DNA of 64,000 bases from a virus: the IMG/VR virus record IMGVR_UViG_3300035183_000720, positions 3,144 to 67,143 of that record, one strand, 5' to 3'. Positions 18,282-63,319 of the stretch are shown here, in pieces. The position numbers and the translations under genes are program-made. Below the pieces are notes generated by a model, which had not been told where the DNA came from, did not search any database, and worked only from the letters and a program-made list of their open reading frames with translations. Numbering within the stretch: position 1 is the stretch's first letter; each line of letters starts with the position of its first letter.

Positions 18282-18733
18282 CATTCATCAGGATTATCAA
18301 TTTTCGAAGCACGAAAACGTTTTCTTCTTTTTGGTGCTATTTCTTCGCAATCTTCATCAGCATATTCTTCAGTTACATAAGTTGGTTGTTTTTTTGTTTG
18401 GAATGCGTTATATTTGTGCTTTATCCATTTATTAGCGACAGCATTGCTGGCAACAACGCCAAGATATATCAGCCAGATCATTTCAAAAGAATCTGGAGTA
18501 GTAGTACTGAATAAATTCAAGCTGAGAAAGGCAAGTGTCGCGGCAAAATATGCCACGTTGCTCCAGAATTTAGTATGACTTAGATGACTAGATGCTTCAT
18601 CTCTAAAAAGTTCAGTCATATCTATTTTTTTGCCCAATTTGAGCATTACTATGAATAAAGTTATGAGAAACAGTGATAAGAAAGCGAAGCTTACTATTTT
18701 GAATGAATCCGTTAGAAGATGGCTAAAGTCCAT
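18281..18733 (-). CDS. Membrane protein, possible holin
   Basis: Three hydrophobic segments, SHTKFWSNVA motif, charged C-terminal tail. Confidence 0.5.
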   Translation of the reverse strand: MDFSHLLTDSFKIVSFAFLSLFLITLFIVMLKLGKKIDMTELFRDEASSHLSHTKFWSNVAYFAATLAFLSLNLFSTTTPDSFEMIWLIYLGVVASNAVANKWIKHKYNAFQTKKQPTYVTEEYADEDCEEIAPKRRKRFRASKIDNPDE

Positions 18734-18745
18734 GAGGGTTTACCG

Positions 18746-20218: not shown

Positions 20219-21431
20219 TCTTTCAAAGCTTTCAAATGAAGAATTATTGGCTTTATACAAAGAAAAGAAAAACAGAGAAGCGACTTACGAAGCCATGCAA
20301 ATGGCCTTGAAAATTACTTTAAATTCATTGTATGGCGCACAAGCAAATGAACATTTCCGTTATTATTCTACGGATATCGCAGAAGGTATTACATTAACAG
20401 GTCAATTTACCATTCGGTATATTTCGAATGTTTTGAATGAATTTTTAAATAAGAAGTTGAAGACAGATGGGGTTGATTATGTAGTTGCAAATGATACAGA
20501 TTCTGCATACATTCGTCTTGATACTCTAGTTGAAAAGATTGTGCCTAAAGACACTCCAATTCAAAAAATTGTTGATTTTCTTGATAAATTTGTCTCAACT
20601 GTACTCGAACCATTGATCGCTGAAAAATTTGAAGCTTTGGCTGCTTACATGAATACACCTGAAAACAAGATGCATATGAAACGGGAAGCCATAGCTGACC
20701 GCGCTATTTGGAGAGCTAAGAAGAATTATATTTTGCAAGTTTATGACAATGAAGGCGTTCGGTACAATGAGCCGAAGTTGAAGACAGTTGGAATCGAAAC
20801 AGCAAGGTCTAGTACACCGGAGCTAGTTAGAAAAGCTTTGGAGAAATCTCTTCTCATATTGTTGAATGAAGATGAAGGGGATCTTCATACATTCGTGAAA
20901 GAATTTCGCGAGACATTTATGAATGCACCTGTTGAGGATATTGCATTTCCTCGTGGGGTAACAGATTTGGATAAGTGGGTAGATCCGACTGGACGAGAGT
21001 CATGGAAATTAGGCGCCCCAGTACATGTCAAAGCCTCGTTAGTTTATAATGAGCGATTGCGAACGACTGGATTGATTAAAAAGTATCCTGTGATTAAGAA
21101 TGGGGATAAGATCAAGTTTGTGTATCTCAAACAACCCAATCCTGTTAGAAATAATGCTATTGCATTCACCGATGTTTTTCCACCTGAGTTTGAGATGGAT
21201 GAGTATATTGATCGGGAACTTCAGTTCGAAAAGACATTTCTTGAACCACTTCGTAGCTTCACAGACATCATTGGCTGGCAAACTGAGAAGGTTAACACCT
21301 TGATGGATTTTTTCAGCGAAGAAGGTCCAGTGACGCAAACGAAGGCGTTGACAACCTCAAAAGAGTCTGTTAAAATTAATAAACAGCCTGCTGGTAAGCA
21401 GACACGCGTGACATTGGAATCATTCTTTTAA
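20211..21431 (+). CDS. 43: DNA polymerase B, C-terminal subunit (split gp43B)
   Basis: Motif B KITLNSLYG, motif C NDTDS, KKNY; C-terminal VTLESFF. Confidence 0.93.
   Translation: MNDLSKLSNEELLALYKEKKNREATYEAMQMALKITLNSLYGAQANEHFRYYSTDIAEGITLTGQFTIRYISNVLNEFLNKKLKTDGVDYVVANDTDSAYIRLDTLVEKIVPKDTPIQKIVDFLDKFVSTVLEPLIAEKFEALAAYMNTPENKMHMKREAIADRAIWRAKKNYILQVYDNEGVRYNEPKLKTVGIETARSSTPELVRKALEKSLLILLNEDEGDLHTFVKEFRETFMNAPVEDIAFPRGVTDLDKWVDPTGRESWKLGAPVHVKASLVYNERLRTTGLIKKYPVIKNGDKIKFVYLKQPNPVRNNAIAFTDVFPPEFEMDEYIDRELQFEKTFLEPLRSFTDIIGWQTEKVNTLMDFFSEEGPVTQTKALTTSKESVKINKQPAGKQTRVTLESFF
21348..21376 (+). promoter_or_regulatory. Sigma70 promoter for uvsX
   Basis: TTGACA-17-TAAAAT inside 3' end of gp43B. 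Confidence 0.6.
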
Positions 21432-32429: not shown

Positions 32430-35213
32430 ATGTTACCTGTATTTTTAGCCGCAGCCAGAACAATTGCTCGTAGTGCTAGTATTTCTCGCGCCATCAATGG
32501 AATCAAAACTGGTAATTTAAGAGAAATTGCTAGAAAAGTTAGACGAGAAGCCCCTGAGGCGGTTTGGCGCTCAGCGGGCGGTAATCAAGTGCCTGTGTTG
32601 GATGCCATATTCAATAAATGGAATAAGAGAAGGATTTCTCGTCTTGATGAAATGGAAGGTGATGATACCGCAGAAAACAAGAAAGTTAAAGCAGATGATG
32701 CTAAATTTGAGCGCGAGATAAATCGCGAACGGGCGGTTAATAGAAAAATACAAGAAGAAATCTTGAGAAAAGAAGAAGCAGATAGAGTCGCGGCGGCCCA
32801 TGAAGCTGCCCATCAGAGAGCTATTGCGGCGACTTTAGGTAGAGAAGAAGTCAGCTATCTTCAGCGGATTAGTTATGACATCGCGCAATTGAAAGAGTAC
32901 ATGCTCAAACATGGAATGTGCTGTGATTCTGGTGATGAGGATAAAAAATCAAACGGATTATTTAAAGGGTTGCTCAGTATTTTACCTTCAGGGCTCCCAT
33001 CTCTTGGTAAGAAAATTTTAGGGGCTTTTGGAGGAAGAATAAGTACCATTAAAAACATTGGTAGTAAAGCAATTGATCTGGTCGGAGCTGGTGGAAGGAG
33101 AATCGCTGGGGCTGCTAAAAATTCTGTGCCTAAAATTAAAAGATTTCTGGGAGGCATAACTGGGTCGATAGGAAAATCGATAAAAGGATTAAAAACAGGC
33201 GCAGCGGATGTGGTCGCCCATGGGGGTATGCTAGAAGGAGCAAAGAATGCATCTTCTGGTGTATTAAAAGGCGTAGGAGCTGTAGGTAGAACTGCTGGTG
33301 CCGCCAAAAATATTGCCTCTTCACTCTTGGGTGTTGTCGCAGATTTTGAGAATCCTATTGAAGCGGTCCAATCTGCGGCAACGACTGGTTGGGAAATTGG
33401 CAAATGGCTCAATGAAAGCATGGAAGGGACGGAAGTTGGTAGGATCAAGGATGCGATTTTCAATAAAATCTTTTCGACTATAGATGTTTTAACTGGTGGC
33501 GGAATCAGTGGAAATAAAGATATTGCTAAACAGCTTCAGGGAGAAAGTTTTCTTGGTGAATCTACTGCAAGTACGGAACAGAAAGTTTCAGACGCACAGG
33601 CAGCTGGTGATATTAAACAGAAAGTAGCCAGTACTGTCGCTAGTGCTGTTGCACAAAAAATGGTTGATATTGCTGCGCAAAAAGTAGCGGGCGTTATTAT
33701 TCCATCTTCAGATAATGTTACAAAAAAAGTAGTTGATATTATTTCTCCAGTCGCTGATGATGCTAAACAGAAAGTGGCTGATACTATTGCCCCATCTATT
33801 GGTGATGCTCTAATGAAGGTAGTTGATACTATTGTGCCGTCTGCAGGGGCCGCAGAAGTTGACGAAAAGATAGAAAAGCAAAAGTTTCAGAGAATTGAAT
33901 TACAGAAGTTCGATAGAATGGAAAAGATTGATAAAGATTTGATTGCTGCTATCAATGCTAATAATGAAAAATTAGATCAGACGAATGAATCTTTAGAAAT
34001 TATTAGTAGTGATAACTGGCTTGAAAAATTAGGGGATAATCTAAAAAATGGAATGGGTTTCCTAGCAAGTCGATTCAGTGAAAGGTTGAGAAGCGGCGCT
34101 CAAAAATTAGAGGAATGGGGAAGAAAACTCCAAGAAGGTACTGGTACTGGAGTCGCTCAGAGATTGAAAAGATTTGTAGGCGGAGTTGCTGAAAAAGTTG
34201 GTTCTGGTTTAGAATCTACTGCTATGAAAGCAGGTGAAATTGGTTATGATTTGCAGAAAGGAAGTAAAAATCAACTTGAATTGGCGAGATCATTCCAAGG
34301 TAGTAAAACTATAAAGGGCTTAACACCCGAGCAAACGAAAGCTTACGCCGGTAATGTAGCGGCTACTGAAAGTGGCGGGAAAGTAGACATAGTAAATTCA
34401 TTTGGTTTTATGGGGCAATATCAGTTTGGCGCGGATGCTTTAGCTGATCTTGGGTTCATAGATAAAGAGAAACTTGCTAGAGCAAAAGCCGAGGCTAGAG
34501 CTGCAGGTAAGGATTGGTATAAGAGTGGCTTACATAAAAGATTCTTAGAAGATCCTAGCAATTGGATTAACAAGGGTGGCCGTGAAGCTTTCATAAAAAA
34601 TAAAAAAATTCAGGATGATCTCTTCGTCGAGTATACAAACAGAAATATTGAAGCAGGATTTAAAAGCGGTGCACTTACCAAAGAAAGTACTCCTGAACAA
34701 GTAGTTGCTTATGCCAAAGCGGCGCATCTAAAAGGAGTCGGAGGGGCTAACAATTACTTCTTACGGGGAATAGATAGTGCAGATGCTTATGGCACTACGG
34801 TCAGTAAGTATGCGAAGGATGCCGCTGAAAATGTAATAGCCTTGAGCAGACAAGTTAATGTTCAGCCAGTTACAAATAAAGCTGAAATGAGCATATTTCC
34901 CCTCACTCATGATAATTCTTTAGCGACATCTGGTAAGATTGAGATGGCCTCAGCCAATGATTTGACAAGACTGATGCCTGTCTCTCAAGCAAATATTGGG
35001 GATGTTGTCAGTTTACAAACGATGGAAACAAGAAAGGCTGAACAACAAAGTCTTCAGCCTGTTGTTATCAATGCTGGTGGGTCAGCTCCAGCGCCTGTGG
35101 TTGTTCCGACAAATAAAGTATCTAATACTGGATCTGCACCTATGGTCACTCGCAATCAAGACAGTAGCATTCGCCGCGTCACCGATGCATTGATGAGCTA
35201 CGGTTTGTCTTGA
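32430..35213 (+). CDS. Tape measure / baseplate hub protein with lysozyme-like domain
   Basis: Long Ala/Gly-rich helical protein after hub genes; TESGG..NSFGFMGQYQFG..AAHLKG. Confidence 0.75.
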   Translation: MLPVFLAAARTIARSASISRAINGIKTGNLREIARKVRREAPEAVWRSAGGNQVPVLDAIFNKWNKRRISRLDEMEGDDTAENKKVKADDAKFEREINRERAVNRKIQEEILRKEEADRVAAAHEAAHQRAIAATLGREEVSYLQRISYDIAQLKEYMLKHGMCCDSGDEDKKSNGLFKGLLSILPSGLPSLGKKILGAFGGRISTIKNIGSKAIDLVGAGGRRIAGAAKNSVPKIKRFLGGITGSIGKSIKGLKTGAADVVAHGGMLEGAKNASSGVLKGVGAVGRTAGAAKNIASSLLGVVADFENPIEAVQSAATTGWEIGKWLNESMEGTEVGRIKDAIFNKIFSTIDVLTGGGISGNKDIAKQLQGESFLGESTASTEQKVSDAQAAGDIKQKVASTVASAVAQKMVDIAAQKVAGVIIPSSDNVTKKVVDIISPVADDAKQKVADTIAPSIGDALMKVVDTIVPSAGAAEVDEKIEKQKFQRIELQKFDRMEKIDKDLIAAINANNEKLDQTNESLEIISSDNWLEKLGDNLKNGMGFLASRFSERLRSGAQKLEEWGRKLQEGTGTGVAQRLKRFVGGVAEKVGSGLESTAMKAGEIGYDLQKGSKNQLELARSFQGSKTIKGLTPEQTKAYAGNVAATESGGKVDIVNSFGFMGQYQFGADALADLGFIDKEKLARAKAEARAAGKDWYKSGLHKRFLEDPSNWINKGGREAFIKNKKIQDDLFVEYTNRNIEAGFKSGALTKESTPEQVVAYAKAAHLKGVGGANNYFLRGIDSADAYGTTVSKYAKDAAENVIALSRQVNVQPVTNKAEMSIFPLTHDNSLATSGKIEMASANDLTRLMPVSQANIGDVVSLQTMETRKAEQQSLQPVVINAGGSAPAPVVVPTNKVSNTGSAPMVTRNQDSSIRRVTDALMSYGLS

Positions 35214-35719
35214 CTATACTTGTCGAGTAGCTCTTTCACTTCTTTTGCCCAGGACTTGCAAAGATTAAGCTGTTCGACTACTGTGTCTGCTCGAGCGGCT
35301 TCAGAGAGAAGAAATCTACTAGCCTCTTCAGAAAGTTCGGTTCCTGTTCCTCCTGTAGTACTGGCGGTAGAGGAGGAATCTGTGGAAGAGGTGTTTTGAC
35401 AACTCGAACGGGAGCCTGGATCGCGCAGCCTGTGACCAGCGCTGATAGCAGAATTGTACTTATTAAGTAATGCTTTGGTGCGTTTTTCGTTTTCAGCATA
35501 GGCCAGTTCTAGTTTATCTCTAGTTGTAAGAAGTTCATGTTCAACTTGTGTGGCACGTTCTCTTTCTTGTTGTAAAGCTTCATTAGCTATTCGTTCAATT
35601 TCAGCAATCCTTTGTGCGTATATAGCATCTTTGTACTTTGCGGTGAAATGAATTGAGATAGCGCTGCTAGCAGCCGCCGCAGCAATTGTTGCTAATGCGA
35701 TTATTCTAACGTCGAACAT
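35198..35719 (-). CDS. Inner-membrane spanin (Rz-like)
   Basis: N-terminal TM, coiled coil, RLRDP, ADTVVEQLNLCKSW. Confidence 0.85.
   Translation of the reverse strand: MFDVRIIALATIAAAAASSAISIHFTAKYKDAIYAQRIAEIERIANEALQQERERATQVEHELLTTRDKLELAYAENEKRTKALLNKYNSAISAGHRLRDPGSRSSCQNTSSTDSSSTASTTGGTGTELSEEASRFLLSEAARADTVVEQLNLCKSWAKEVKELLDKYSQDKP
35278..35499 (-). CDS. Outer-membrane lipoprotein spanin (Rz1-like), embedded in Rz
   Basis: Signal peptide with lipobox LVTG-C, Pro-rich mature region, alternative frame inside Rz. Confidence 0.82.
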   Translation of the reverse strand: MLKTKNAPKHYLISTILLSALVTGCAIQAPVRVVKTPLPQIPPLPPVLQEEQEPNFLKRLVDFFSLKPLEQTQ

Positions 35720-35817
35720 CTTTGCTCACCAGGTGGTATCTCTTTGCAGTATCGTTTAAAATATCATCGACGATTCTGTTTGATTCAGTTTCATCATCCC
35801 AAAGGCAATAGCATCCG
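35706..35817 (-). pseudogene. Orphaned 3' end of gene 37259-37666
   Basis: Translates GCYCLWDDETESNRIVDDILNDTAKRYHLVSKDVRR*; 35732-35817 matches 37294-37379 at 78/86 nt. Confidence 0.85.
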
Positions 35818-35930
35818 TCGTATCACGGATGCAATAATGAGTTATGGATTATCTTGATTTGCTTGGTATTTATCCAGTAGATTCTTCACTTCTTTTACCC
35901 AAGCCTTACACAGAGGTTGAACTGCTCGAC
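35806..35930. pseudogene. Diverged duplicate of tape-measure 3' end and Rz 3' end
   Basis: + strand SIRRITDAIMSYGLS* versus SIRRVTDALMSYGLS*; - strand VEQFNLC/KAWVKEVKNLLDKY versus VEQLNLCKSWAKEVKELLDKY (35162-35278). Confidence 0.85.
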
Positions 35931-35988
35931 AAATATAATCAGAATGATCATTGAACAAATTTGAAGAATTCTAGCAATTAACATAGAA

Positions 35989-35996
35989 CATAAATA
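35989..35996 (+). promoter_or_regulatory. Late promoter (CATAAATA) before tnpB
   Basis: TAAATA ends 5 nt before ATG; no obvious RBS. Confidence 0.5.
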
Positions 35997-36001
35997 ACAT
36001 C

Positions 36002-37258
36002 ATGAAACAACTCTGCGCTTACAAATACCGAATTTATCCGACGGAAGAACAACAAGTTCTTCTGTCTAAAACCTTTGGTTGTAAGCGCATGATCTATAAT
36101 TATTATCTCGAAGTACAGCAAACCAGATTCAAAAATAAAGAACCTCTGTTAAGTCATTTCGACATTAATAGGGATATCACTAAACTGAAAAAAGAAAAGG
36201 AATGGCTGCGTGAAGTTGACTCAAATGCCCTATTAGCGGCAGCAGCAGATTTATGGTCCGCTTTTAATAATTTCTTCAAGTCGATCAAAGGTAGGAGAAA
36301 AGGTCCAAAGGTATCTCCTCCAAAGTTTAAGACTAAGAAATCTCGCCAGTCGTATCGAACAGAATATGTTCATATCAATGATGACGGAACAATACATATT
36401 CCAAAACTGAAAGCCGTCAAAGCAGTTATTCACAGAAAAATTCCAGAAGGCTCGATAATCAAATCAGCCACGATTTCAAAAGACCCAGATGGAAGATACT
36501 ATGCGTCAATTCTGGTTGAAACAGAAGTAGCTTTAAAACCGATGACAGGTAGAGAAGTTGGTTGTGATCTGGGTCTCAAGGATTTATTCATCATGTCGAA
36601 CGGATTGAAATTCAAGAAGCCTGATGATTTACCGAACATTGCGAGAACCAAGCAATTGTTGAAATTGAGACAAAAACAGTTCGCGAGAACTGTCAAAGGC
36701 AGCAAAAATCATGAATCTCTGAGGCTTCGAGTAGCACGTTTGTACTCGAAATTAACAAGACAAAGAAATGAGTATTACCATTTGATTAGTAGATTCTTAG
36801 TTGATAATTATGATTCCATCTATCTTGAAGACTTGTCGAGTAAGAACATGCTACAAAACAAGAAGCTGAGTAGGGCAATTCATGAAGTAGCATGGTCAAC
36901 CTTAGTGAGAATGATCGAATACAAATCGTCCTGGTATGGTCGAACATTCCATAAGATTGATCGTTGGTATCCGTCAAGCAAGACTTGTTCTTGTTGCGGT
37001 CATGTACTTGAGAAATTAGATCTCGACATAAGAAAATGGACTTGCCCTGCTTGTAATGAACACCATGATCGAGATGTCAATGCTGCCAAGAACATTCTCC
37101 GTATCGGTCAAACAGACTGCTACGGAGGACCTATGAAGTCGCAGACGACAGGCGACTTGGGACTAGAAATCCCAATGGCCCTTCAGAAAATGATCGTTAA
37201 AACCGAGAGGTCTGGCGTATCTTCGCCAGTTGATCATGGGAGGGGGCAAGCTGCATGA
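36002..37258 (+). CDS. tnpB: RNA-guided endonuclease TnpB
   Basis: AYKYRIYP HTH, RuvC GCDLG / LEDL / DRDVNAAKNI, CSCC..CPAC zinc finger. Confidence 0.96.
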   Translation: MKQLCAYKYRIYPTEEQQVLLSKTFGCKRMIYNYYLEVQQTRFKNKEPLLSHFDINRDITKLKKEKEWLREVDSNALLAAAADLWSAFNNFFKSIKGRRKGPKVSPPKFKTKKSRQSYRTEYVHINDDGTIHIPKLKAVKAVIHRKIPEGSIIKSATISKDPDGRYYASILVETEVALKPMTGREVGCDLGLKDLFIMSNGLKFKKPDDLPNIARTKQLLKLRQKQFARTVKGSKNHESLRLRVARLYSKLTRQRNEYYHLISRFLVDNYDSIYLEDLSSKNMLQNKKLSRAIHEVAWSTLVRMIEYKSSWYGRTFHKIDRWYPSSKTCSCCGHVLEKLDLDIRKWTCPACNEHHDRDVNAAKNILRIGQTDCYGGPMKSQTTGDLGLEIPMALQKMIVKTERSGVSSPVDHGRGQAA

Positions 37259-37666
37259 TTAAAGATCATGTGGTAGTCGGCGAAAAAACCATTGGTGGTA
37301 TCTCTTTGCGGTATCGGCTAATATGTCATCGATGATTCTGTTTGATTCAGTTTCATCCTCCCAAAGGCAATAACATCCGATAAAAAGAAGCATGCTTTTG
37401 GCGACAGAAAATTCATCATCCGACAAGATTATACGAAGTATTTGATTGATTTTTTTGATACCAAAAGTGTTGATTGAAATTATGATATTATTTAAGAGCA
37501 ATTTCTCATTGATCATACCCGTTCTTAAGAAACGGGCAATCATTTTTCGGATGATGAAGAGATTGTATATGTCTTTTTTGAACTCAATTTCATCGGAGAA
37601 ACCATTGATGGCATAACCATCCTTGGCAATTTCTATGATTTTCTTTTTTCTGCCGCGGTTCGCCAT
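37259..37666 (-). CDS. Conserved T4-like hypothetical protein; its last codons come from the tnpB right end
   Basis: EFKKDI..IRKMIARF..G.INEKLLLNNII..NTFG pattern. Confidence 0.75.
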   Translation of the reverse strand: MANRGRKKKIIEIAKDGYAINGFSDEIEFKKDIYNLFIIRKMIARFLRTGMINEKLLLNNIIISINTFGIKKINQILRIILSDDEFSVAKSMLLFIGCYCLWEDETESNRIIDDILADTAKRYHQWFFRRLPHDL

Positions 37667-37948
37667 TTACTGCGCGGTTTTCGAACTTTTTACCCGACGG
37701 CGAGGCTTCTTTTCTGCTTCATCATCATCTGCTTTGGTTTCTACTTCAACTGGAATTTGTTCTGGTTCAGTTTCAGCAACTTCCACAGGAACTTTCCCCT
37801 TATATGGCCGATTAGGTACAAATCCCTCGACTGGATTGGGTAGTCCTCGTACACAGACTAGTACTTCGCCAGTTTTGGGAAGAGCCCAACCGTAAATAGT
37901 AGGAATTGCATCTGGATGTGGTTTTCGAAAACGTCTTTCAGTTGACAT
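37667..37948 (-). CDS. Hypothetical protein
   Basis: AAGGAG RBS; DAIPTIYGW..P.TGEVL. Confidence 0.75.
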   Translation of the reverse strand: MSTERRFRKPHPDAIPTIYGWALPKTGEVLVCVRGLPNPVEGFVPNRPYKGKVPVEVAETEPEQIPVEVETKADDDEAEKKPRRRVKSSKTAQ

Positions 37949-37978
37949 TTGTATTAATCTCCTTTATAATATATTAAC

Positions 37979-38088
37979 ATGAGCTAACACACAGCCAAAG
38001 ACTGCATGTCTTCCGGACTCATCGACTCAGCCACTGCTGACGCCTCCTCCGGTTTTTGTTTAATGTCCGACTTGGCTCCCAAACCAGA
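37979..38088 (-). ncRNA. Orphan TnpB omegaRNA / IS605 right-end-like element, copy A
   Basis: Hairpins, AAACAAAAAC linker, terminal hairpin ending TAGCTCAT; encodes TnpB-tail-like SGLGAKSDIKQK; 72/110 nt identical to 63517-63626. Confidence 0.7.
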
Positions 38089-38094
38089 CGATAT

Positions 38095-38102
38095 TATTTA
38101 TG
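38095..38102 (-). promoter_or_regulatory. Late promoter (CATAAATA) on minus strand
   Basis: Immediately 5' of omegaRNA-like copy A and the leftward genes. Confidence 0.6.
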
Positions 38103-38136
38103 ATAATTTATTCACTATCAGTCGCATCATAATTTA

Positions 38137-39195
38137 ATGCACCATGTAGACTACAAGTACATGCTACTCGTCAGCCCAAGACTTGAGTTATTCAAGGACT
38201 TGGGGAATGATATTTACAATTTCAGATGTCCTTTCTGTGGTGATAGTAAAAAGAAAAAGAATAGAGCCCGTGGTTACTTTTTCCCTGTGGATGATACGGT
38301 TATTTTTAAATGTCACAATTGCGGAAAAAGTGTCAACCTTCCGAATTTTCTTCAAGAATTGGACTATGGGTTGTTCACGCAATATAAGTTAGAGAAAATT
38401 GGTAAGCCCAAGCAAACTGACGCTTTTCCTGAATTAGTTTCTGTGAAACAAAAAGAACTTGCTTTGAAAGCAAATGATGCTCTCCGAGAATGCTATAAGT
38501 TAAGTGATGTTCCTGAAGATTTAAAATCTGTGCTCGAATATGCTAAAAGCCGTTGTATTCCTGAAGTATTTTTCGAAAAGCTTTATGCTGCGAGAAGTTT
38601 GAATTTAATTGCGAAACATATTGATCGTTACAAAGATAAAGAATTTTCTGATTTTCCTATCTTAGTTATTCCTTTCTTTAGAGTAGATGGCAGTTACAGC
38701 TACATACAATGTAGGAGTATTGATTCAGAAACTCCGTCGCATCTACGTTTTGTCACGTTTGGTGTCGATACCAATGCGCCAAAATTGTGGGGCGAGTTTC
38801 GCGTGAATTGGAACAAGCCAATCTATATACTAGAAGGACCAATAGATGCTATGTTTGTAGTGAATGGTTTGGCTATAGCAGGCGCGATGCATACAGGCAC
38901 CATAGATTACATAAAAGAATGTCAAGTTAAATTTCGCGATGAACTGAACTTGAAGGATATTTGTTTTTGTTATGATAATGATTATTCGACGAATCAAGAT
39001 ATTATGAAACAATTATTGAAAAGAATCGATGAAGGATTCAGTGTAGTCATTTATGATAAGAAGTTTAAATTCAAAGACATCAATGATGCCATAAAAGGTG
39101 GATGGAATATTCAAGAAATAAATACTTATATTCGAAGTAGAACATTTAGTGGATTAACCGCAAAACTAGAGCTCAGTAAATTAGGCAGAAATTAA
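38137..39195 (+). CDS. 61: DNA primase
   Basis: NFRCPFCGDS..RARG..CHNCG; toprim LEGPIDAMF, YDND, KDIND. Confidence 0.95.
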   Translation: MHHVDYKYMLLVSPRLELFKDLGNDIYNFRCPFCGDSKKKKNRARGYFFPVDDTVIFKCHNCGKSVNLPNFLQELDYGLFTQYKLEKIGKPKQTDAFPELVSVKQKELALKANDALRECYKLSDVPEDLKSVLEYAKSRCIPEVFFEKLYAARSLNLIAKHIDRYKDKEFSDFPILVIPFFRVDGSYSYIQCRSIDSETPSHLRFVTFGVDTNAPKLWGEFRVNWNKPIYILEGPIDAMFVVNGLAIAGAMHTGTIDYIKECQVKFRDELNLKDICFCYDNDYSTNQDIMKQLLKRIDEGFSVVIYDKKFKFKDINDAIKGGWNIQEINTYIRSRTFSGLTAKLELSKLGRN

Positions 39196-45461: not shown

Positions 45462-45504
45462 TTTGGACTGCATTTCAGATAATCGAATAAACAAGGACAA
45501 ACGC

Positions 45505-48500
45505 ATGAGATTTAAAGAATTTATTCAACTCCAGGAAAATAGTTTATACACCGATCCCGCCAGCAAAGCCGCTCTTCTTGCAGATAAAGAGCGAGTGATG
45601 GATAGTTTGATGTTCAACTTTTTTGGCTTTCTTGGATTGTATAAGCTGAGCGACACTCGTGGTTACATGAAAAGTTATGAAACGACTGAAGGGAAGTTGA
45701 TTGTTCATAACATTGGTGATACTAACCACGACGTAAGTTTATCGATTAAATTGGCTTATGATGCAGGTTTATTGAATTTGGATGTCGTGAATAAGATGAC
45801 GCGTCTGCTTGCATTGATCAAACAGAAAAGATTGAAGAGCGAGGATCTTAATGAAACTTTAATTAGGGCTCTATTAGATGAAATTCATTATGCTACCCAT
45901 AAGCCTAGCTTAAGAGTTTTTTCAATCATACAAGCTTTTCATAATGGTGCTCTCGATTTACCTAATTTAGCAAAAGAACTTTATCAACTCGCAAAGTTGC
46001 GGGAATATAAAAACATTACAGGTGAATTTCGTGATTTAGTTTTGAAGGGACAATATAACAGTCTTTTCGCGAAATTGAAACCTCAGGCGAATGTCACTAA
46101 TGATTCCCCGACCACTTCTGAAATATCTGCGGCTGACATTCAAGATGTAAACAAGCAAAGTCAACCTAAGTCTTCTGAACCAGAAAAACCGGTTTCGCCA
46201 CCACCTTCAAAATTAGGGCAAACAGATGAGTTCATGGATGGAATTTTTGAAGCTAAGGATCAAGCGCAGTTTAAAGAATTGTTCAAAACTTATGATGTCA
46301 AGGAATTTGATTTTGATAAGTTCATGAAGTGGTTCAAATCACCCAAAAACAAAGAAAAGTTTCCTCCTGGGGCACTGGACAGCCCTCTTTACAAATGGCT
46401 TCTAGAAACTTTAAATTCTTCGACAGATCAAAAAGTACGTCAAACTGTTAATGGCATTTTAGAAAAAATTCTGGTTAATTTTATTTCGAGCTACGCAACC
46501 TCGAAAGATGTCAGAGGATTTCTTGAAGCTATCAAAGACATCGATCCGAAAGTTGTTTATACAGACGAAATTTCTAAAAAAAGCCAGAAGATACTTTTAG
46601 ACGCTCTAGATGAGCTTTTAGACCTTTTTGTTTCTAATGTTGTTGGAAACGCTCCTGATTTTTCAGATGCTACATTGGCGCAACTCAAAAAACAATATGA
46701 ATCTTTTAAAGCGTTTGCATGGAAGTTTGGGTCTGAAGCTAAATTAAATGCAGTTAAAACAAAGGAAATTTTTAAGACCGGATTCGATAAGATTAGCGTC
46801 TATGCTTTGGTTCTTGATCTTGCATACATTACTTACGCTGAAATTAATTTGGTTGCTTGGCTTGAAAAAACTTTTGGCCGCGGGAGTGTGCTCGTCACTT
46901 CTAGAACAAATTATAGGGTGCCGTCTTTTGAGCTAAGAAAGAGCGCTTACGATCAAGCCCCAGAAGAAGCTCAGCAGGCTTTTGAATTGTTAATTCGAAA
47001 TAAAATTCAGAACGCGAAATTAATTGACATTAAAAACAATGGGGTGGAATGGGCAAGACATTGGATTTATGAGGGAAGTATAGATTCAAGAGACGCTCAT
47101 TATAAAATGAATAGTTATGATAAAGTTGATCTCAAAACATTTACAAAGAAGGAAATTGATTCGGCATATGAAGTATTCGCTGATTTAACACCTACTGTTC
47201 TTATTAATTGTATAAAAACATTTTGTAAAATTCGCACAGCGAGATTGAATGATAATGGAAATGCTTATTATAAAAATTTAAAGGATATAGTCATTAAATT
47301 AGTGAAAGCAGATAAAATTGAAGATGTCAATTGGCTCGTTGTTTGTGCTGGTTTGGATGATTTGTTATTTGATGAAGTTACTAAATTGATTTCGAATAAT
47401 AAAAAATACTTGGATAATTTAAATGGCGCCATAGAGCGCTTGATTGATAATAGAAATGATTATGATATAACATATGCTTCAATTGAGAAGATTTATACAT
47501 GGTATTCAAAGTTAGTTGAACAAGGAAAGATTATTCCCACAGCAAAAGTAATTATCGGAATTAGGCTTCATGGGAATGATATTTACATTATGCCTAAGCA
47601 AGAAGATATTGAAGAAGTTTTTCGTGAATTGAAGAGCAGCCGAGGGTCGTTGAATTATCTCCGTTGGTTAGTTAAACATAACGATGATTTAAGGAAAAAA
47701 ATTATTAAATATAATACAACAGCCGGGCATGGCGGTGAGGTTAATCCCGCTAGAGTGCCTTATTCCGCAATCTTCTTGTCTGATGAAGATGTTACTGTTG
47801 GGATTATTGAAAATTTCAAACAACAGTGGATGATCAATCCTAAATTTGATAACATTGCGGATTATGCCTTCAGCAAGAAATTGACGGATGCTTGCTATGA
47901 AACGATGAAAGAGGCGTTAAAAACGTCTGATAATAAATTGCTTATACTGAAGGCATTAAGTGCCGTTGATGGGAAATCATTTAACGATTATTTCAATAAT
48001 ACAGATATTTCGGTGATAAAAGGTGTTTTTTCTGACAGACTGGTAGGGTCAGGAGATATTATTAATGTGCTCAGGACAATGGCGGGTAATAAAGAATTCA
48101 TTTCCGATATTGAGCCTGCTGCTGCTGCTAAATTCACAACAGTTCTCCAAGAATCCTTTCAAGATAAGAAAAAATTTGACAAGTCTGATCGCGATGAGTT
48201 GGGCATGTTGCTCTGTGAGCTTATGGCTTCAGGAATACAAATTAACAAATATGATGTATTGGAGGAGATTTTTAATAATTTAAAAGGAGAACTCAGGAAA
48301 ACAATCATTGGATATTTTGTGGGTTATAATTTCGCAGAAAGAGCGCTAAAGGTTATCTACGCAGACGATGTTTTGATTAAGCCTTATGAGAAATTAAATC
48401 ATCAGCGTCTACTTGATGTTCTTCGTTATAACCACGTTGACCCACCTTCTGTATCAATTCGTGAAGCCCCGGCCTTTAAGACTCTTTTGCAAAGGGCAAA

Positions 48501-49431
48501 CATGGCGAATGCTGTCATTTCTGATCTAAATGTCGAACAAGTGGATAATGATGAAGAGACTTTAGAACGAAAGAGCGTCGAGTATGATGTGTTTAACAAA
48601 TATCGTCATGGACAGATTGCTGTTAAATTCCTTCGTGAGTTTAGAGTTAATATCCCCGAGCAAGAGAAAGGACAGCAAGAGTTTCTGAAGTACATGCCCA
48701 ATACAGATGAGATTGATCCCGCCTTTCATGGTACAGGATCGGTCGCCGCCTCTATGGTCTTGCGTTATGGATTTGCCGTTATTAGAAGTGGCGACGAGTC
48801 GGTCGTTGGCCGCATGTTGGGTAATGGAATCTATTTCTCAAATGTGCTTGATAAGGTTGCTCAATATGTATCAGATGAAGGTTATACACGCGGAATTGGC
48901 ACTAGGGGTTATATCTTTCAAATGCATGCATTGCTTGGCGAAGAAGGTGTTGATTATAGATCCGCTGGACTTGGTAATGACCATATTGTTTCACCTGAGT
49001 GGTGTGTGTTCCAGCCCAACAAACAACTTAAAATTTACAAGGCATATGAAGTCGAAATCATTAGTAAAGATGACATGGATGCCTTGAAAGCAAAATACAA
49101 GATAAATGAGGAAACGGCGGTTAAGATGCTCTCTTTCAAAGAATTTTTACGCGAAGCAAGGACTCCAGGCAAACAAGTGACTACTTATGTGTTTGTCGAT
49201 GGAACAATTCCTGTTTCTGAACATAAAGCAGTTGATTTTGAACAATTCAAACCTGAACAATTCGGTCCTCATGTATGGCTCGAACCATCGAAGAATGGTC
49301 CTATGGTCTGTATTGAACACGATGGAGATCAAAGCGAAGCATTTTGTGTAAGATTTACGAATGCTTTCATGAGACAAGGGCAAGATTTGATGAAGTTCTT
49401 GAATTTGCTTCGGAAAAATGGCGCTCGGTAG
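45505..49431 (+). CDS. Large putative virion protein with PARP-type ADP-ribosyltransferase domain, paralog 1
   Basis: FHGTG, GRMLGNGIYFSNVLDKVAQY, SPEWCVF; starts MRFKEFIQLQE. Confidence 0.75.
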   Translation: MRFKEFIQLQENSLYTDPASKAALLADKERVMDSLMFNFFGFLGLYKLSDTRGYMKSYETTEGKLIVHNIGDTNHDVSLSIKLAYDAGLLNLDVVNKMTRLLALIKQKRLKSEDLNETLIRALLDEIHYATHKPSLRVFSIIQAFHNGALDLPNLAKELYQLAKLREYKNITGEFRDLVLKGQYNSLFAKLKPQANVTNDSPTTSEISAADIQDVNKQSQPKSSEPEKPVSPPPSKLGQTDEFMDGIFEAKDQAQFKELFKTYDVKEFDFDKFMKWFKSPKNKEKFPPGALDSPLYKWLLETLNSSTDQKVRQTVNGILEKILVNFISSYATSKDVRGFLEAIKDIDPKVVYTDEISKKSQKILLDALDELLDLFVSNVVGNAPDFSDATLAQLKKQYESFKAFAWKFGSEAKLNAVKTKEIFKTGFDKISVYALVLDLAYITYAEINLVAWLEKTFGRGSVLVTSRTNYRVPSFELRKSAYDQAPEEAQQAFELLIRNKIQNAKLIDIKNNGVEWARHWIYEGSIDSRDAHYKMNSYDKVDLKTFTKKEIDSAYEVFADLTPTVLINCIKTFCKIRTARLNDNGNAYYKNLKDIVIKLVKADKIEDVNWLVVCAGLDDLLFDEVTKLISNNKKYLDNLNGAIERLIDNRNDYDITYASIEKIYTWYSKLVEQGKIIPTAKVIIGIRLHGNDIYIMPKQEDIEEVFRELKSSRGSLNYLRWLVKHNDDLRKKIIKYNTTAGHGGEVNPARVPYSAIFLSDEDVTVGIIENFKQQWMINPKFDNIADYAFSKKLTDACYETMKEALKTSDNKLLILKALSAVDGKSFNDYFNNTDISVIKGVFSDRLVGSGDIINVLRTMAGNKEFISDIEPAAAAKFTTVLQESFQDKKKFDKSDRDELGMLLCELMASGIQINKYDVLEEIFNNLKGELRKTIIGYFVGYNFAERALKVIYADDVLIKPYEKLNHQRLLDVLRYNHVDPPSVSIREAPAFKTLLQRANMANAVISDLNVEQVDNDEETLERKSVEYDVFNKYRHGQIAVKFLREFRVNIPEQEKGQQEFLKYMPNTDEIDPAFHGTGSVAASMVLRYGFAVIRSGDESVVGRMLGNGIYFSNVLDKVAQYVSDEGYTRGIGTRGYIFQMHALLGEEGVDYRSAGLGNDHIVSPEWCVFQPNKQLKIYKAYEVEIISKDDMDALKAKYKINEETAVKMLSFKEFLREARTPGKQVTTYVFVDGTIPVSEHKAVDFEQFKPEQFGPHVWLEPSKNGPMVCIEHDGDQSEAFCVRFTNAFMRQGQDLMKFLNLLRKNGAR

Positions 49432-49479
49432 TCTAAATTGATGTGAGAAGTTATGTTTATACTATTTTCATATTTCAAG

Positions 49480-49487
49480 AATAAATA
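49480..49487 (+). promoter_or_regulatory. Late promoter (AATAAATA)
   Basis: Intergenic, upstream of paralog 2. Confidence 0.6.
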
Positions 49488-49544
49488 AAAGGTATTTGGC
49501 TTCTCTAAGATTGTCGTTTCACGGTTATCTACTTTGAGGGACAC

Positions 49545-52500
49545 ATGAAATTCAAAGAATTTTTAGAACTCCAGGAAAATAGTTTGTACACGGATTCTGC
49601 CACGAAAAACGCTCTTCTTGCAGACAAAGAACGCGTGATGGATAGTTTGATGTTCAACTTTTTTGGTTTTCTTGGATTGTATAAGCTGAGCGATACTCGC
49701 GGTTACATGAAAAGTTATGAGACGACTGAAGGTGAATTGACGATTCATGATATTGGCGACACTAACCACGATGTGAGTTTATCAATTAAATTGGCTTACG
49801 ATGCTGGTTTGCTGAATTTGGATGCCGTGAATAAGATGACTCGCTTGCTCATACAGATTAAGCAGAAAAAGCTAAAGAGTGAAGATCTTGATGAAACTTC
49901 GATTAGAGGTTTATTAGATGAAATTCATTATACCACTCACAAACCTAGCCTGAGAGTTTTTTCAATCATACAAGCATTTCATAATGGCGCCCTCGATTTA
50001 CCTAATTTAGCAAAAGAACTTTATCAACTAGCAAAGTTGCGAGAGTATAAAAGCACCACGAAAGAATTTCGCAATTTAGTTTTAAAAGGGCAGTATAATA
50101 GTCTTTTTGTGAAATTGAAGTCCCGAGTGAATACTATTAGTGATACCGCCGCCGCTCCCGAAATATCTGCAGTTGGCATTCAAAATGCGAACAAACAAAA
50201 TAAATCTAATTCCCCAAAAGCAGATAAATTAACACCGCCCCCTTCTTCAAAATTAGGGCAAACAGATGAGTTCATGGATGGAATTTTTGAAGCTAAGGAT
50301 CAAGCGCAGTTTAAAGAATTGTTCAAAACTTATGATGTCAAGGAATTCGATTTTGACAAATTCGCAAAATGGTTCAAATCATCCAAGAACAAAGAAAAGT
50401 TTCCTCCTGGAGTATTGAATAGTCCTCTTTGTAAATGGCTTCTAGAAACTTTAAATTCTTCGACAGATGAAAAAGTGCGTCAAGCCATTAATGATATTTT
50501 AGAAAAAATTCTAGTTAATTTTGTTTCGAGTTATACCACCTCGGGAGATATCAGAGGATTTCTTGAAGCTATCAAAGACATCGATCTAGAAGTTGTATCT
50601 ACAATAGAAATTTCTAGAAAAAGTAAAAAGACTCTTTCGAATTCTTTTGATGAACTATTAGATCATTTCGTTTCTGATATCATCGGAAATGCTCCTGATT
50701 TTTCAGATGCTACGCTGGCGCAACTTAGAAAACAATACAGGTCTTTCAAAGCATTTGCTTGGGAGTTTGGTGTTGAAATAGAATTAAGCGCAGCAAAAGC
50801 AGAAAAATTTTTCGATGCTGGGTTTAATAAGATTAGCGTCTATGTTTTAGCTTTAGATCTTGCCTATCTTACTTCTGCGCAAATTGATTATGTGAAATGG
50901 CTTGAAAAAGCTTTTGGTTCTGGAAGTGTGATTATCAAAGCTAATGGAAGTTCTAGAGCATTACCTCTTATACTGAAAAAAAGTGCTTATGATAAAGCCC
51001 CAGAAGAAGCCAAGCAAGCTTTTCAGTTGTTAATTCGAGATAGAGTTCAAGGCGCAAAGATAGTCGATGATGATAATGCTGGGGTGTCATGGGCGAAGCA
51101 TTGGATACATAATGTAGAATTGGCAAGATATGGTATTTATAATGAAATTGACAAATATAATGAAGTTGATCTTAAAGCATTTACTGAAAAGGAAATTGAT
51201 GAGGCATATGAAGTATTCGCTGCCCTGACGCCCGCAAAACTTACTAATTGTGTAGAAGTATTTTGTAAATTCGATACAGAAGGTTTAAGCGATAATGGGA
51301 GAGCTTATCTCAAAAATTTAGCAAAAGTGTTTGCTAAGTTAATAAAAGCAGGTAAGGTTAAAGATACCAATTTGCTTGTTGCCTGTGCGGCCAAAGATGG
51401 TGTATTATTCGATGCGGTCACTGAAGCGATTTCGAATGATAATGAGCATTTAAATAATTTAAATGCCGCTTTAGAAAATATATCCTCTACCTCTGAACAA
51501 ATCAAATATGGTGTAACTTCAGGGTCAGTACAAAAAATTTATAAATGGTACACAGAACTTGCTGATCAAGGAAAAGTTACCCCCACAGCAGATATAATTC
51601 TTGATATTATTAAATTTAAAGGGGAAAATCTTTTTCTTATGCCTAAACAGGAAGATGTTGAAAAGGTTTTTTCCACACTCAAAGGCCGCCAAGAGTCAAT
51701 TGATTATCTTCGCTGGCTGGTTAAACAAGACACTAAACTAAGAGAAAAAATTATCAAATATAACGAGACTGCCAGTCATGGCGGAGATGTTAACCCCGAT
51801 GAAGTACCTTATTCCGCAGTCTTTTTATCTGACAAAGAAATTACTGATGGGATTATTGAAAATTTCAAACAACAGTGGTTAACCAACCCCAAGTTTAATA
51901 ACATCTTAGATTATACTTTCAGCGAGAAATTAACTAATGCTTGCCGCGAAACAATGAAGAGGGTGTTGGAAACATCTGATAGTAAACCGTTTATATTAAA
52001 GGCGTTGAGTGCCGTTGACGGGAAAACATTCAATGATTATTTTAATAATACAGATATTTCTAAGGTGAAAGGGGTTTTTTCCGACAGTTTAACAAAGCCA
52101 GAAGATGTCGCTAATATACTCAGATCAATAGCCAGCGATAAGAAATTCATCGCTGATGTTGGACCCGCTGCTGCTGCCAAGTTTGTAGTTACTCTCCAGC
52201 AAACTCTTGGAGATAAGAAAAAATTTGATAAATCTTATCGAGATGAAATTCACAAGTTGTTCTGTGAATTTATGGTCCCGGGAATTGAATCTAATAAATA
52301 TGATGTTTTAGAGGAGATTTATAAAAACGCAAAGGGAGAATTCAAGAAAGCAATTGTTGATTATTTTGTGGGCTATGGTTTTTTGAAAAAAGCATCAGAA
52401 GCTATTTTCAGGGGTGACGATTTAATTAAACCTTACGATAGATTAGATTCACAGCGTCTACTTGACGTTCTTCGTTACAATAATGTTAATCCACCTTCCT

Positions 52501-53483
52501 TAACTGTCCGTGAAGCTCCAACTTTTAAAATGCTCTTACAAAGAGCAGATGCTGCAGGGGACATTATTCCCGATTTGAAGGTCGAACAAGTTGAGCATGA
52601 TAAAGAGTCTCTGGAACGAAAAAGTGTTGAGTACGATGTATTTAACAAATATCGCCATGGACAGATTGCGGTTAAATTCCTCCGTGAATTCAAAGTCAAT
52701 ATTCCGGAGCAAGAGAAAGGACAGCAAGAGTTTCTGAAGTACATGCCCAATACAGATGAGATTGATCCCGCCTTTCATGGTACAGGATCAATTGGCGCGT
52801 CCATGATTTTGCGTTATGGGTTTGCAGTCATTAAAAGGGGAGATGAAATGGTCGTTGGACGCATGTTAGGTGATGGAATCTATTTCTCGAATGTGCTCGA
52901 TAAGGTTGCTCAGTATGTGTCAGATGCAGGTTATACGCGTGGTATTGGTTCTAGAGGTTATATCTTTCAAATGCATGCATTGCTCGGTAAAGAAGATGTT
53001 GATTATAGAGCCGCTGGTCTTGGGGGTGATAATATCATTTCTCCTGAATGGTGTGTATTTCAACCTAACAAACAACTTAAAATTTACAAGGCATATGAAG
53101 CTGAAATCATTAGTAAGAATGACATGGACGCACTGAAAGCAAAGTATAACACAAATGAAGAAACAGCGGTGAAGATCCTCTCTTTCAAAGAATTTTTACG
53201 TGAAGCAAAAACTCCAGGCAAACAAGTAACTACTTATGTGTTTGTCGACGGAACAATTCCTATCTCAGAGCGCGAAGCAGTTGATTTTGAACAATTCAAA
53301 CCTGAGCAATTCGGCCCTCACGTATGGCTTGAGCCGTCTCAGAATGGGCCTATAGTTTGCATCGAACACGATGGGGATCAGAGCGAAGCATTTTGTGTAA
53401 GATTTACACATGCTTTCATGAGTTATAAAGATGATTTGAATAAATTTTTAAGTTTATTGAGAAGAAAAACAGTGGTTACTTAA
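49545..53483 (+). CDS. Large putative virion protein with PARP-type ADP-ribosyltransferase domain, paralog 2
   Basis: Colinear with paralog 1; FHGTG, GRMLGDGIYFS, SPEWCVF; starts MKFKEFLELQE. Confidence 0.75.
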   Translation: MKFKEFLELQENSLYTDSATKNALLADKERVMDSLMFNFFGFLGLYKLSDTRGYMKSYETTEGELTIHDIGDTNHDVSLSIKLAYDAGLLNLDAVNKMTRLLIQIKQKKLKSEDLDETSIRGLLDEIHYTTHKPSLRVFSIIQAFHNGALDLPNLAKELYQLAKLREYKSTTKEFRNLVLKGQYNSLFVKLKSRVNTISDTAAAPEISAVGIQNANKQNKSNSPKADKLTPPPSSKLGQTDEFMDGIFEAKDQAQFKELFKTYDVKEFDFDKFAKWFKSSKNKEKFPPGVLNSPLCKWLLETLNSSTDEKVRQAINDILEKILVNFVSSYTTSGDIRGFLEAIKDIDLEVVSTIEISRKSKKTLSNSFDELLDHFVSDIIGNAPDFSDATLAQLRKQYRSFKAFAWEFGVEIELSAAKAEKFFDAGFNKISVYVLALDLAYLTSAQIDYVKWLEKAFGSGSVIIKANGSSRALPLILKKSAYDKAPEEAKQAFQLLIRDRVQGAKIVDDDNAGVSWAKHWIHNVELARYGIYNEIDKYNEVDLKAFTEKEIDEAYEVFAALTPAKLTNCVEVFCKFDTEGLSDNGRAYLKNLAKVFAKLIKAGKVKDTNLLVACAAKDGVLFDAVTEAISNDNEHLNNLNAALENISSTSEQIKYGVTSGSVQKIYKWYTELADQGKVTPTADIILDIIKFKGENLFLMPKQEDVEKVFSTLKGRQESIDYLRWLVKQDTKLREKIIKYNETASHGGDVNPDEVPYSAVFLSDKEITDGIIENFKQQWLTNPKFNNILDYTFSEKLTNACRETMKRVLETSDSKPFILKALSAVDGKTFNDYFNNTDISKVKGVFSDSLTKPEDVANILRSIASDKKFIADVGPAAAAKFVVTLQQTLGDKKKFDKSYRDEIHKLFCEFMVPGIESNKYDVLEEIYKNAKGEFKKAIVDYFVGYGFLKKASEAIFRGDDLIKPYDRLDSQRLLDVLRYNNVNPPSLTVREAPTFKMLLQRADAAGDIIPDLKVEQVEHDKESLERKSVEYDVFNKYRHGQIAVKFLREFKVNIPEQEKGQQEFLKYMPNTDEIDPAFHGTGSIGASMILRYGFAVIKRGDEMVVGRMLGDGIYFSNVLDKVAQYVSDAGYTRGIGSRGYIFQMHALLGKEDVDYRAAGLGGDNIISPEWCVFQPNKQLKIYKAYEAEIISKNDMDALKAKYNTNEETAVKILSFKEFLREAKTPGKQVTTYVFVDGTIPISEREAVDFEQFKPEQFGPHVWLEPSQNGPIVCIEHDGDQSEAFCVRFTHAFMSYKDDLNKFLSLLRRKTVVT

Positions 53484-63243: not shown

Positions 63244-63319
63244 GCTGGGTTCGCGTAGTGGTCATCGCAGCGGATTTGTAATCCGCCATTCGTGGGTTCG
63301 AATCCCACACCCAGCTCCA
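63244..63319 (+). tRNA. tRNA-Thr(UGU)
   Basis: Acceptor GCTGGGT/ACCCAGC, anticodon arm GCGGA-TTTGTAA-TCCGC, T-arm GTGGG-TTCGAAT-CCCAC, encoded CCA. Confidence 0.93.

Follow-up and report, generated by a model that had tools for sequence, protein, structure and literature searches.

How does a nuclease gene that can no longer be mobilized come to lie between two copies of the same phage gene end? The question is raised by a 64,000-nucleotide (nt) stretch of the IMG/VR virus record IMGVR_UViG_3300035183_000720 (hereafter the window; bases 3144-67143 of the 67,143-base record, with a CheckV completeness of 37%; all coordinates are positions within the window). Here a tnpB gene of the IS200/IS605 type is found on what the PHROG family matches indicate to be a T4-like myovirus contig, these matches including tail sheath, portal, major head protein, and baseplate hub, as well as UvsX, a gp46/47-like SbcCD, clamp loader, DnaB-like helicase, primase, and single-stranded DNA-binding protein. 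The explanation we favor, and hold with middling confidence, is that an IS200/IS605 module of tnpB, its ωRNA, and a guide, truncated at its left end, lies in a recombination scar, in which TnpB would be a passenger and the guide a relic of an insertion in the gene to its right (gene X). Neither megablast nor blastn against GenBank phages found anything similar to positions 34000-39000, and Rfam had no matches within 34500-39000.

A tnpB block between diverged copies of both flanks

The features that make up the locus are the following:

32430-35213, plus strand: large tail/baseplate gene (the upstream gene; 927 amino acids), whose last ~40 nt are copied, in diverged form, at 35818-35858
35198-35719, minus strand: Rz-type i-spanin gene (173 amino acids; PHROG 2466, Rz-like spanin, 1.1e-12; Pfam Phage_lysis, 0.0016)
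35278-35499, minus strand: embedded candidate gene for an Rz1-type o-spanin (73 amino acids; lipobox-like LVTGC), assigned by position and sequence
35732-35817: 3′ end of gene X, stranded, from parental allele A; it adjoins the start of Rz, as it does in the empty alleles
35806-35817: joint J1, of sequence CAATAGCATCCG, a microhomology at which the X end and the upstream-gene end share nine exact bases, TAGCATCCG
35818-35930: imported fragment (113 nt), a diverged upstream-gene end plus a frameshifted Rz 3′ end
35930/35931: joint J2, from the Rz 3′ end to the inner left end of the element
35931-35988, plus strand: 58 nt of uncertain origin after J2, without a left-end hairpin
36002-37258, plus strand: tnpB (418 amino acids), with an intact RuvC triad (D189, E276, D358) and zinc finger
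37293/37294: joint J3, from the right end plus 12 nt to the X end
37294-37379: right copy of the X 3′ end (allele B), belonging to the functional X gene
37259-37666, minus strand: gene X (DUF7207/PHROG 407; 135 amino acids), its last 11 codons derived from the right end and the joint

The block is framed by an 86-nt direct repeat (35732-35817 and 37294-37379; 78 of 86 positions identical, 91%), which confirms an earlier reading of the letters alone (the original prediction) that the end of gene X is present on both sides. That reading had also placed a diverged copy of the upstream-gene end and of a frameshifted Rz end to the left of tnpB, and this too is what the alignment shows: across J1 and the fragment (35806-35930), 90 of 125 columns match the window's own copy (72%), and the Rz frame is broken by a 2-nt insertion. 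The label of tape measure given to the upstream gene was not sustained; this gene, whose end is overlapped by the Rz 3′ end, has only weak matches, to PHROG 27932 (baseplate hub subunit and tail lysozyme; 4e-18) and to transglycosylase. When left flanks were compared with right flanks, the window gave a value of 132 against a shuffle maximum of 29, and was the only one of 22 elements of its clade (described below) to exceed 100 shuffles; the flank duplication is a one-off.

Four related contigs hold the same locus empty and represent at most three distinct alleles (L002/L003, L051, and L052), in each of which nothing intervenes between the upstream gene, Rz, and X. Against this layout, positions 35818-37293 and one copy of the X end are gains of the window, and both of its copies map to a single stretch of L002 (6289-6372); gene X of the window is 75% identical to that of L051 and 71% to that of L052. 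In the empty alleles, the sequence corresponding to the left flank of the block (upstream-gene end and Rz end) lies ~560 nt from that of the right flank. At J1, L002 reads CAGTAGCATCCG and the window's own upstream-gene copy reads CAGTAGCATTCG; the left junction does fit both parents through its 9-nt exact microhomology, as had been noticed. The comparison with related phages called for by the original prediction thereby yielded the empty alleles, and no donor-type allele.

The two 86-nt copies have distinct parentage. Most copy-specific states recur in other lineages, and the copies are therefore best read as different alleles, as opposed to one sequence that decayed in place: the left copy has six states that differ from both the right copy and L002, four of which recur in L051 or L052, and one of the two right-specific states is common to L052. 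The fragment is in turn a third allele, being 72% identical to the window's own copy and 75-76% identical to L002, L051, and L052 (100/134 to L002 over 35806-35930; 79/106 and 81/106 to L051 and L052, respectively, over 35810-35913), and it contains the extra bases TGCTTGG, which are also in L002 and missing from the window's own copy. This parentage bears on a reading that requires no second phage, in which the segment reaching from the upstream-gene end as far as the X end was duplicated in tandem and later underwent insertion of the element, deletion, and decay. Such a history would account for the direct repeats that flank the block and for the left copy having more private changes than the right, in the manner of a pseudogene; it does not sit well with the recurrence in L051/L052 of four of six left-specific and one of two right-specific states, with the TGCTTGG bases shared with L002, or with a fragment only 72% identical to the window's own copy whereas the 86-nt copies are 91% alike, and we consider it improbable. 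Sliding identity to L002 revealed no clear conversion-tract boundary on either side of the block.

A repeat of this kind could also mislead an assembler. The stretch is present in two microbial-mat sequencing runs, and the Logan contigs, made by a different assembler, agree with the window at every base from 35022 to 37339 in one run and from 35442 to 37339 in the other. In each run a single contig bridges J1, J2, and the right end and extends 46 nt into the right 86-nt copy; the following contig shares with it 30 nt found in the right copy alone, and the right joint is thus bridged as well. Depth is even over the block (224, compared with 206-224 around it, in one run; 299, compared with 303-319, in the other). 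A chimera of two strains joined via the repeat would be conceivable for a metagenomic contig, the more so as the Logan contigs break at 37310-37339, inside the right copy, and as both runs are possibly the source sample, which makes Logan an independent assembly but not an independent sample. However, the longest identical run between the two copies is 24 nt, less than the ~31-letter words suggested by the 30-nt contig overlaps and the word size of the run index, so a word-based assembler cannot misjoin them; with the joints bridged in two runs at even depth, we give a chimera, of which the original prediction had warned, almost no credence.

An intact nuclease gene in an element without a left end

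The nuclease itself is as had been described from the letters, with an intact D-E-D triad and zinc finger borne out by Pfam and by alignment to ISDra2. Three Pfam families match above their cut-offs (HTH_OrfB_IS605, PF12323, 5.8e-16; OrfB_IS605, the RuvC domain, PF01385, 3.1e-17; Cas12f1-like_TNB, PF07282, 2.6e-26), and alignment to the solved ISDra2 TnpB (E 1.5e-68, over residues 6-367) sets D189, E276, and D358 against D191, E278, and D361, which we take to be the catalytic residues of the latter; the zinc-finger cysteines of the window TnpB are C329, C332, C348, and C351. Also in agreement with the original prediction, no tnpA (PF01797, Y1 transposase) was matched, either in the window or in the entire 67,143-base record (~37% of the genome).

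In IMG/VR there are 21 loci with a TnpB 71-80% identical to that of the window (L004-L024), and a T4-like major head gene occurs in two of the five host records checked among them. The closest prokaryotic TnpB is 44% identical, in a pattern-limited scan of one genome from each of 185,579 species. The clade was found in viral contigs only and, on this distribution, seems to be phage-resident.

A normal left end could be read from 13 distinct insertions of these relatives, in which the flank is TTTAT (nine insertions), TTCAT (one, that of L008), ATTAT (one), GTTAT (one), or unclear (one), with a hairpin next to it; the target-adjacent motif (TAM) of ISDra2 is TTGAT. The window resembles its relatives only from ~14 nt before the tnpB ATG onward, and its left edge has neither a TTTAT-type flank or TAM nor a hairpin. 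The 71 nt from 35931 to 36001 fold as DNA at -1.8 kcal/mol (z +1.14), no better than shuffles, compared with -16.3 kcal/mol for the left end of L010; positions 35931-35988 have no significant likeness to X, Rz, or L002, and a weak likeness to the inner left ends of the relatives (p 0.03-0.1). The right end, with its terminal hairpin (seven of ten pairs covary), is present. Since the left-end hairpin is missing, this copy cannot transpose, and TnpA could not mobilize it. Among the relatives, a scan of the open reading frames (ORFs) of L006 found a divergent Y1 transposase gene beside tnpB (E 2.1e-32), and L007, L012, L015, and L018 have the same upstream sequence as L006.

IS200/IS605 transposition makes no target duplication. 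In the window, the absence of a left-end hairpin and of a left-edge TAM, together with flanks that are not adjacent in the empty alleles, shows that the block was not placed by transposition. Canonical transposition into the Rz/X junction was considered in its own right and is ruled out: there is no TTTAT/TTCAT motif there, and the current guide has no match at the X-end/Rz junction where the block sits.

The expression signal of tnpB is the following:

35989-35996, plus strand: late-promoter-like motif CATAAATA of the T4 type, ending 5 nt before the tnpB ATG, without a ribosome-binding site

The original prediction had taken this motif for a late promoter, which is plausible; NATAAATA also precedes the sheath and capsid genes. 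Of 18 ATAAATA sites in the window, nine are intergenic, and, tnpB aside, seven intergenic sites are followed within 84 nt by the start of a gene on the same strand; the genes behind them include the sheath gene, the major head gene, and two 1,300-amino-acid ORFs. The 8-mers TATAAATA and CATAAATA are without overall enrichment in the window (3 against 3.9 expected, and 3 against 4.3 expected, respectively). Transcripts of T4 late genes start ~6 nt past the motif, and given this distance the tnpB mRNA would be leaderless. The arrangement is common to the clade: in each of the 21 relatives NATAAATA ends 5-7 nt before the ATG, and a ribosome-binding site is lacking. Among the Bacillota relatives from the prokaryotic scan (Shimazuella and Paenactinomyces; at most 44% identity), AGGAGG sites are found in the upstream regions of all six loci inspected, and TTGACA and TATAAT boxes were also seen in four Shimazuella copies; two cyanobacterial loci (31% identity) have neither AGGAGG nor TTGACA/TATAAT boxes. 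In the viral clade, a late-promoter-like motif at leaderless distance thus appears to have taken the place of the promoter and ribosome-binding site of bacteria.

A conserved ωRNA and a guide that resembles gene X

The right end of the element and its candidate target comprise:

37137-37281, plus strand: ωRNA scaffold and right end, with a terminal hairpin and a 4-bp pseudoknot, overlapping the tnpB 3′ end
37282-37301, plus strand: predicted guide, the first 12 nt of which (37282-37293) are the match to an N-terminal site in X
37589-37614, plus strand: guide-like site with a TAM-like TTCAT inside X (TTCAT at 37589-37593, site at 37594-37614)

In a right-end alignment of 20 sequences, 98.7% of cells are paired and 24 of 46 pairs have changed on both sides, a level reached by none of 500 shuffles. 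The window keeps every ωRNA helix. The pseudoknot, formed between the first loop and the last scaffold bases, pairs in 20 of 20 sequences; in the window, a T-to-C change at 37278 is compensated by an A-to-G change in the loop, and a second window-specific double change, at columns 81/88, preserves another pair. The alignment and the pseudoknot pairing together set the right end at 37281 and the start of the guide at 37282. On these sequence grounds, the nuclease and its ωRNA are probably active.

The 12 bases after 37281 are not X-end sequence, the likeness to which begins at 37294. They match an N-terminal coding site of X (plus strand) in L002 at 11 of 12 positions, the sole match with at most one mismatch in 12.4 kb, where 0.20 would be expected. 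Because they match the N-terminal site and not the X end, J3 is best described as an illegitimate joint with patchy microhomology, as opposed to simple homology. The origin put forward in the original prediction (break repair between related phages, homologous on the right and microhomology-mediated on the left) thus stands in part: recombination of diverged phages and the left microhomology hold, and a homologous right joint does not. The tail that the joint gives to X, QWFFRRLPHDL, is found in none of 19 homologues.

Over its full length the guide matches the L002 site at 17 of 20 positions, with one seed mismatch and TTTCAT directly before. The window's own site, 313 nt from the right end, agrees at 16 of 20, guide positions 2, 4, 14, and 18 being mismatched; one of the seed mismatches results in a serine that is unique among 20 sequences (the others have F in 16, L in two, and Y in one). 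L051 and L052 have diverged at this site. A guide-like site with a TAM-like motif nearby was found for one of the 22 elements, that of the window. In IS200/IS605 elements the guide is the flank of the insertion site, and the resemblance of this guide to the N-terminal site of X therefore suggests an earlier insertion inside X of some relative.

Proposed recombination between co-infecting relatives

We propose that the block would have been imported via recombination between diverged co-infecting relatives, and not by transposition. The starting donor would have had the order upstream-gene end, Rz stub, truncated tnpB, right end, 12 nt, and X, and the recipient the order upstream gene, Rz, and X. 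On the right side, a homologous exchange would have occurred somewhere in or beyond X; on the left side, the copied strand would have been captured at TAGCATCCG in the recipient X end, which would keep Rz and Rz1 and strand 86 nt of X. The donor would already have contained J2 and J3 as older scars, and the 12 bases after the right end would be the relic of an earlier canonical insertion beside TTCAT in X. The outcome would be three illegitimate joints (J1, J2, and J3) and two X-end copies that remain from different parents. The order of these events and the earlier insertion in X are what we infer from the anatomy.

Several points weigh against this proposal. Neither a donor-type allele nor one that carries the element within X turned up in IMG/VR or in metagenome contigs, and the order of events is therefore a reconstruction; likewise, a donor lacking the spanin genes, as the original prediction supposed, stays conjectural. 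The searches for a donor comprised the J2 26-mer (no matches in IMG/VR), a lineage-specific right-end 22-mer (no matches in metagenome contigs), X alignments in metagenome contigs (at least five loci, all distant at 42-53%, among the matches listed) and in IMG/VR (seven loci, none with tnpB at the equivalent place), and an Rz query, which returned only two contigs, both already found as relatives. In addition, the 12-mer's match to the window's own X site (two mismatches) is not unusual, with 21 such matches in the window against 18.3 expected; the relic argument rests on L002, the adjacent motif, and the position, and is post hoc. For the TAM, the source was the flanks of left ends and not pairs of filled and empty sites, and its register to the guide is uncertain by 1 nt. 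Finally, the ωRNA is intact and compensated and the window's own target has seed mismatches, which is easier to reconcile with an active role than with that of a pure passenger.

Could TnpB itself have driven the exchange?

TnpB is the ancestor of Cas12, and in bacteria it restores its own transposon after excision. Its spread between genomes in the manner of the Seg and Mob nucleases of T-even phages is so far only theoretical, to the extent covered by a 2026 review (PMC13565253), which names this mode as theoretically possible for co-infecting phages. The window offers a specific version of this idea, namely that a left-end-less TnpB with its ωRNA acts as a free-standing homing endonuclease in T4-like phages by RNA-guided, intronless homing, an explanation that we treat as plausible but less likely than not. 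The nuclease would be made late from a leaderless mRNA, its guide would target the common X allele of competitors, and its own X would be spared by seed-escape substitutions. The cut by the donor's TnpB would fall at the N-terminal site of the X gene of a co-infecting relative, while seed mismatches protect the X of the donor; the broken phage would then copy the donor X, the right end, and tnpB, onward into the donor upstream-gene end; and the second end would be captured at TAGCATCCG, such that the spanin genes of the recipient are kept and its X end is stranded.

Much of what was found at the locus is consistent with this mechanism: the 17 of 20 guide match to the L002 site with TTCAT beside it; the window's own site, mismatched at guide positions 2 and 4, one of which gives the serine unique among the 20 homologues; the restriction of such a site near a TAM-like motif to the window among 22 elements; an intact nuclease and an ωRNA with compensatory changes; a clade that seems phage-resident and has a late-promoter-like motif; and a nuclease gene that the window has between conserved genes and that L002/L003, L051, and L052 lack. 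Moreover, X and the right copy are of one allele and the left copy (with Rz) is of another, which is the static pattern expected of co-conversion. On the other hand, no X allele with a perfect TAM and seed was found, as IMG/VR holds nine exact matches and none of the nine is in an X homologue. Guide positions 14 and 18 mismatch both of the close X alleles compared (the window's own and that of L002), since J3 altered the guide; a fossil guide from an old insertion predicts the same likeness to X; and the donor allele is hypothetical.

Were homing to be the correct explanation, cutting would drive co-conversion of X and tnpB into a competitor, and the window would be a caught product, ended by microhomology capture. 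The locus in any case supplies material for testing it, in the form of an intact immobile nuclease with its ωRNA, a candidate target, a seed-mismatched self allele, and empty alleles, and it points to a TnpB clade seemingly resident in T4-like phages. If TnpB is only a passenger, as we favor, the locus is still a clear case of microhomology-mediated mosaic formation that rescued lysis genes.

The intactness of an immobile element could alternatively reflect domestication for another role, e.g., guide-directed repression of X or competitor exclusion without homing. A guide-like site in the neighboring gene would be in keeping with such a role, and nuclease-dead regulators derived from TnpB are known, at least as outlined in the literature; the catalytic triad here is intact, unlike in those regulators, and the window's own site has seed mismatches, and we find this explanation quite unlikely.

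Relation to known systems

A parallel to the stranded gene end comes from fungal mitochondria, where endonuclease ORFs (as at Allomyces atp6) bring a foreign gene 3′ end and strand the resident one. There, too, a duplicated gene end lies on both sides of a mobile nuclease gene, with one copy used and one stranded; the nuclease class and host are different, and the copy in use in the window has acquired a new tail from the element right end.

Compared with the ISDra2 TnpB-ωRNA complex (8EXA, 8BF8, 8H1J), the window has the same domain order, RuvC D-E-D triad, and zinc finger, and an ωRNA that likewise overlaps the 3′ end of the gene and stops at the right end, followed by a flank-derived guide. 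It differs in having no left end, no tnpA in the record, a T4-like phage host, an inferred TAM of TTTAT/TTCAT, and NATAAATA with no ribosome-binding site before the ATG.

IS200/IS605 elements have been described from T4-like phages before, as ISCaje1-4, mostly TnpB-only, in the Campylobacter phages CP220 and CPt10 (2010; PMC2853527). As far as that account goes, these are also resident at sites that differ among relatives, some with tnpA and most without; they are discrete insertion sequence copies with a target sequence, whereas the element in the window is truncated, forms part of a mosaic scar, and carries a guide similar to a neighboring gene.

TnpB-driven transposon homing has been reported in bacteria (Meers et al., PMC10055086), and 'non-restorative homing' into co-infecting phages is discussed as theoretically possible, with a plasmid experiment cited (PMC13565253). 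The idea common to these sources, in the parts that bear on it, is an RNA-guided cut of the element-free allele and copying of the element by homologous repair. In the bacterial case the empty site is exact, with TAM and flank adjacent; in the window the candidate target is 313 nt off and one end of the repair would have been formed by microhomology. The free-standing homing endonucleases of T-even phages (SegF, SegB, and others), which carry out intronless homing as summarized in PMC13565253, likewise have a nuclease gene between conserved genes and a target in a neighboring gene, with the own allele protected by substitutions and flanking markers co-converted; the corresponding features of the window are candidates recognized from sequence. 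The Seg-type nucleases are protein-guided, whereas the window TnpB is RNA-guided by prediction. Induction of a cyanophage tnpB in the course of infection has been reported (2026 preprint). A literature search (supplements were outside its scope) found no paper showing TnpB-driven homing between phages.

The lysis genes and other observations

Two further features adjoin the block:

35867-35874, minus strand: GATAAATA, part of the imported fragment and 148 nt upstream of the Rz start
37990-38102, minus strand: solo right-end or ωRNA-like remnant of a second TnpB family, behind CATAAATA, at the head of the ORF93-X(-Rz) gene string

X and Rz overlap in the empty alleles, where they are probably co-transcribed, and in the window 1.56 kb of antisense tnpB now lie between them. 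GATAAATA is absent from the homologous stretch in the window's own copy and in L002, and a motif of its type would be expected there with a rough chance of ~0.04; this hints that it may be a replacement late promoter for Rz/Rz1, cut off from their operon. The Rz1 candidate has zero family matches in Pfam and PHROG.

The second-family remnant is without a nuclease gene and was identified by alignment with L030-L035, which are full copies with proteins ~40% identical. It is 95% identical in the empty relative L002; both runs show it joined to other sequences too, at a depth 2-3 times as high as in the flanking stretches.

The terminal hairpin of the window element (37250-37274) is, by eye, closer to the reverse complement of the L006-type hairpin (21 versus 16 of 25 bases); its loop looks flipped, and the stop codon of X sits within it. 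Three of the TnpB copies in the clade (L020, L023, and L024; 76-78% identical to that of the window) lie within 25 kb of one 129-kb T4-like contig, on which the major head gene match is in two pieces. In L024 (3780-3830 and 5275-5300), the right flank, next to TTCAT, resembled on visual inspection the ribosome-binding site and opening codons of the gene immediately left of this canonical element, a candidate that was rejected (p 0.25 against shuffles).

Elsewhere in the window, a single tRNA-Thr is encoded at 63244, far from the tnpB locus. The DNA polymerase (18719-21431, plus strand) is split over two overlapping ORFs, which correspond to the N- and C-terminal halves of one PHROG family, and two adjacent paralogous ORFs of 1322 and 1312 amino acids (45463-53483, plus strand; PHROG 18612, function unknown) each lie behind AATAAATA.

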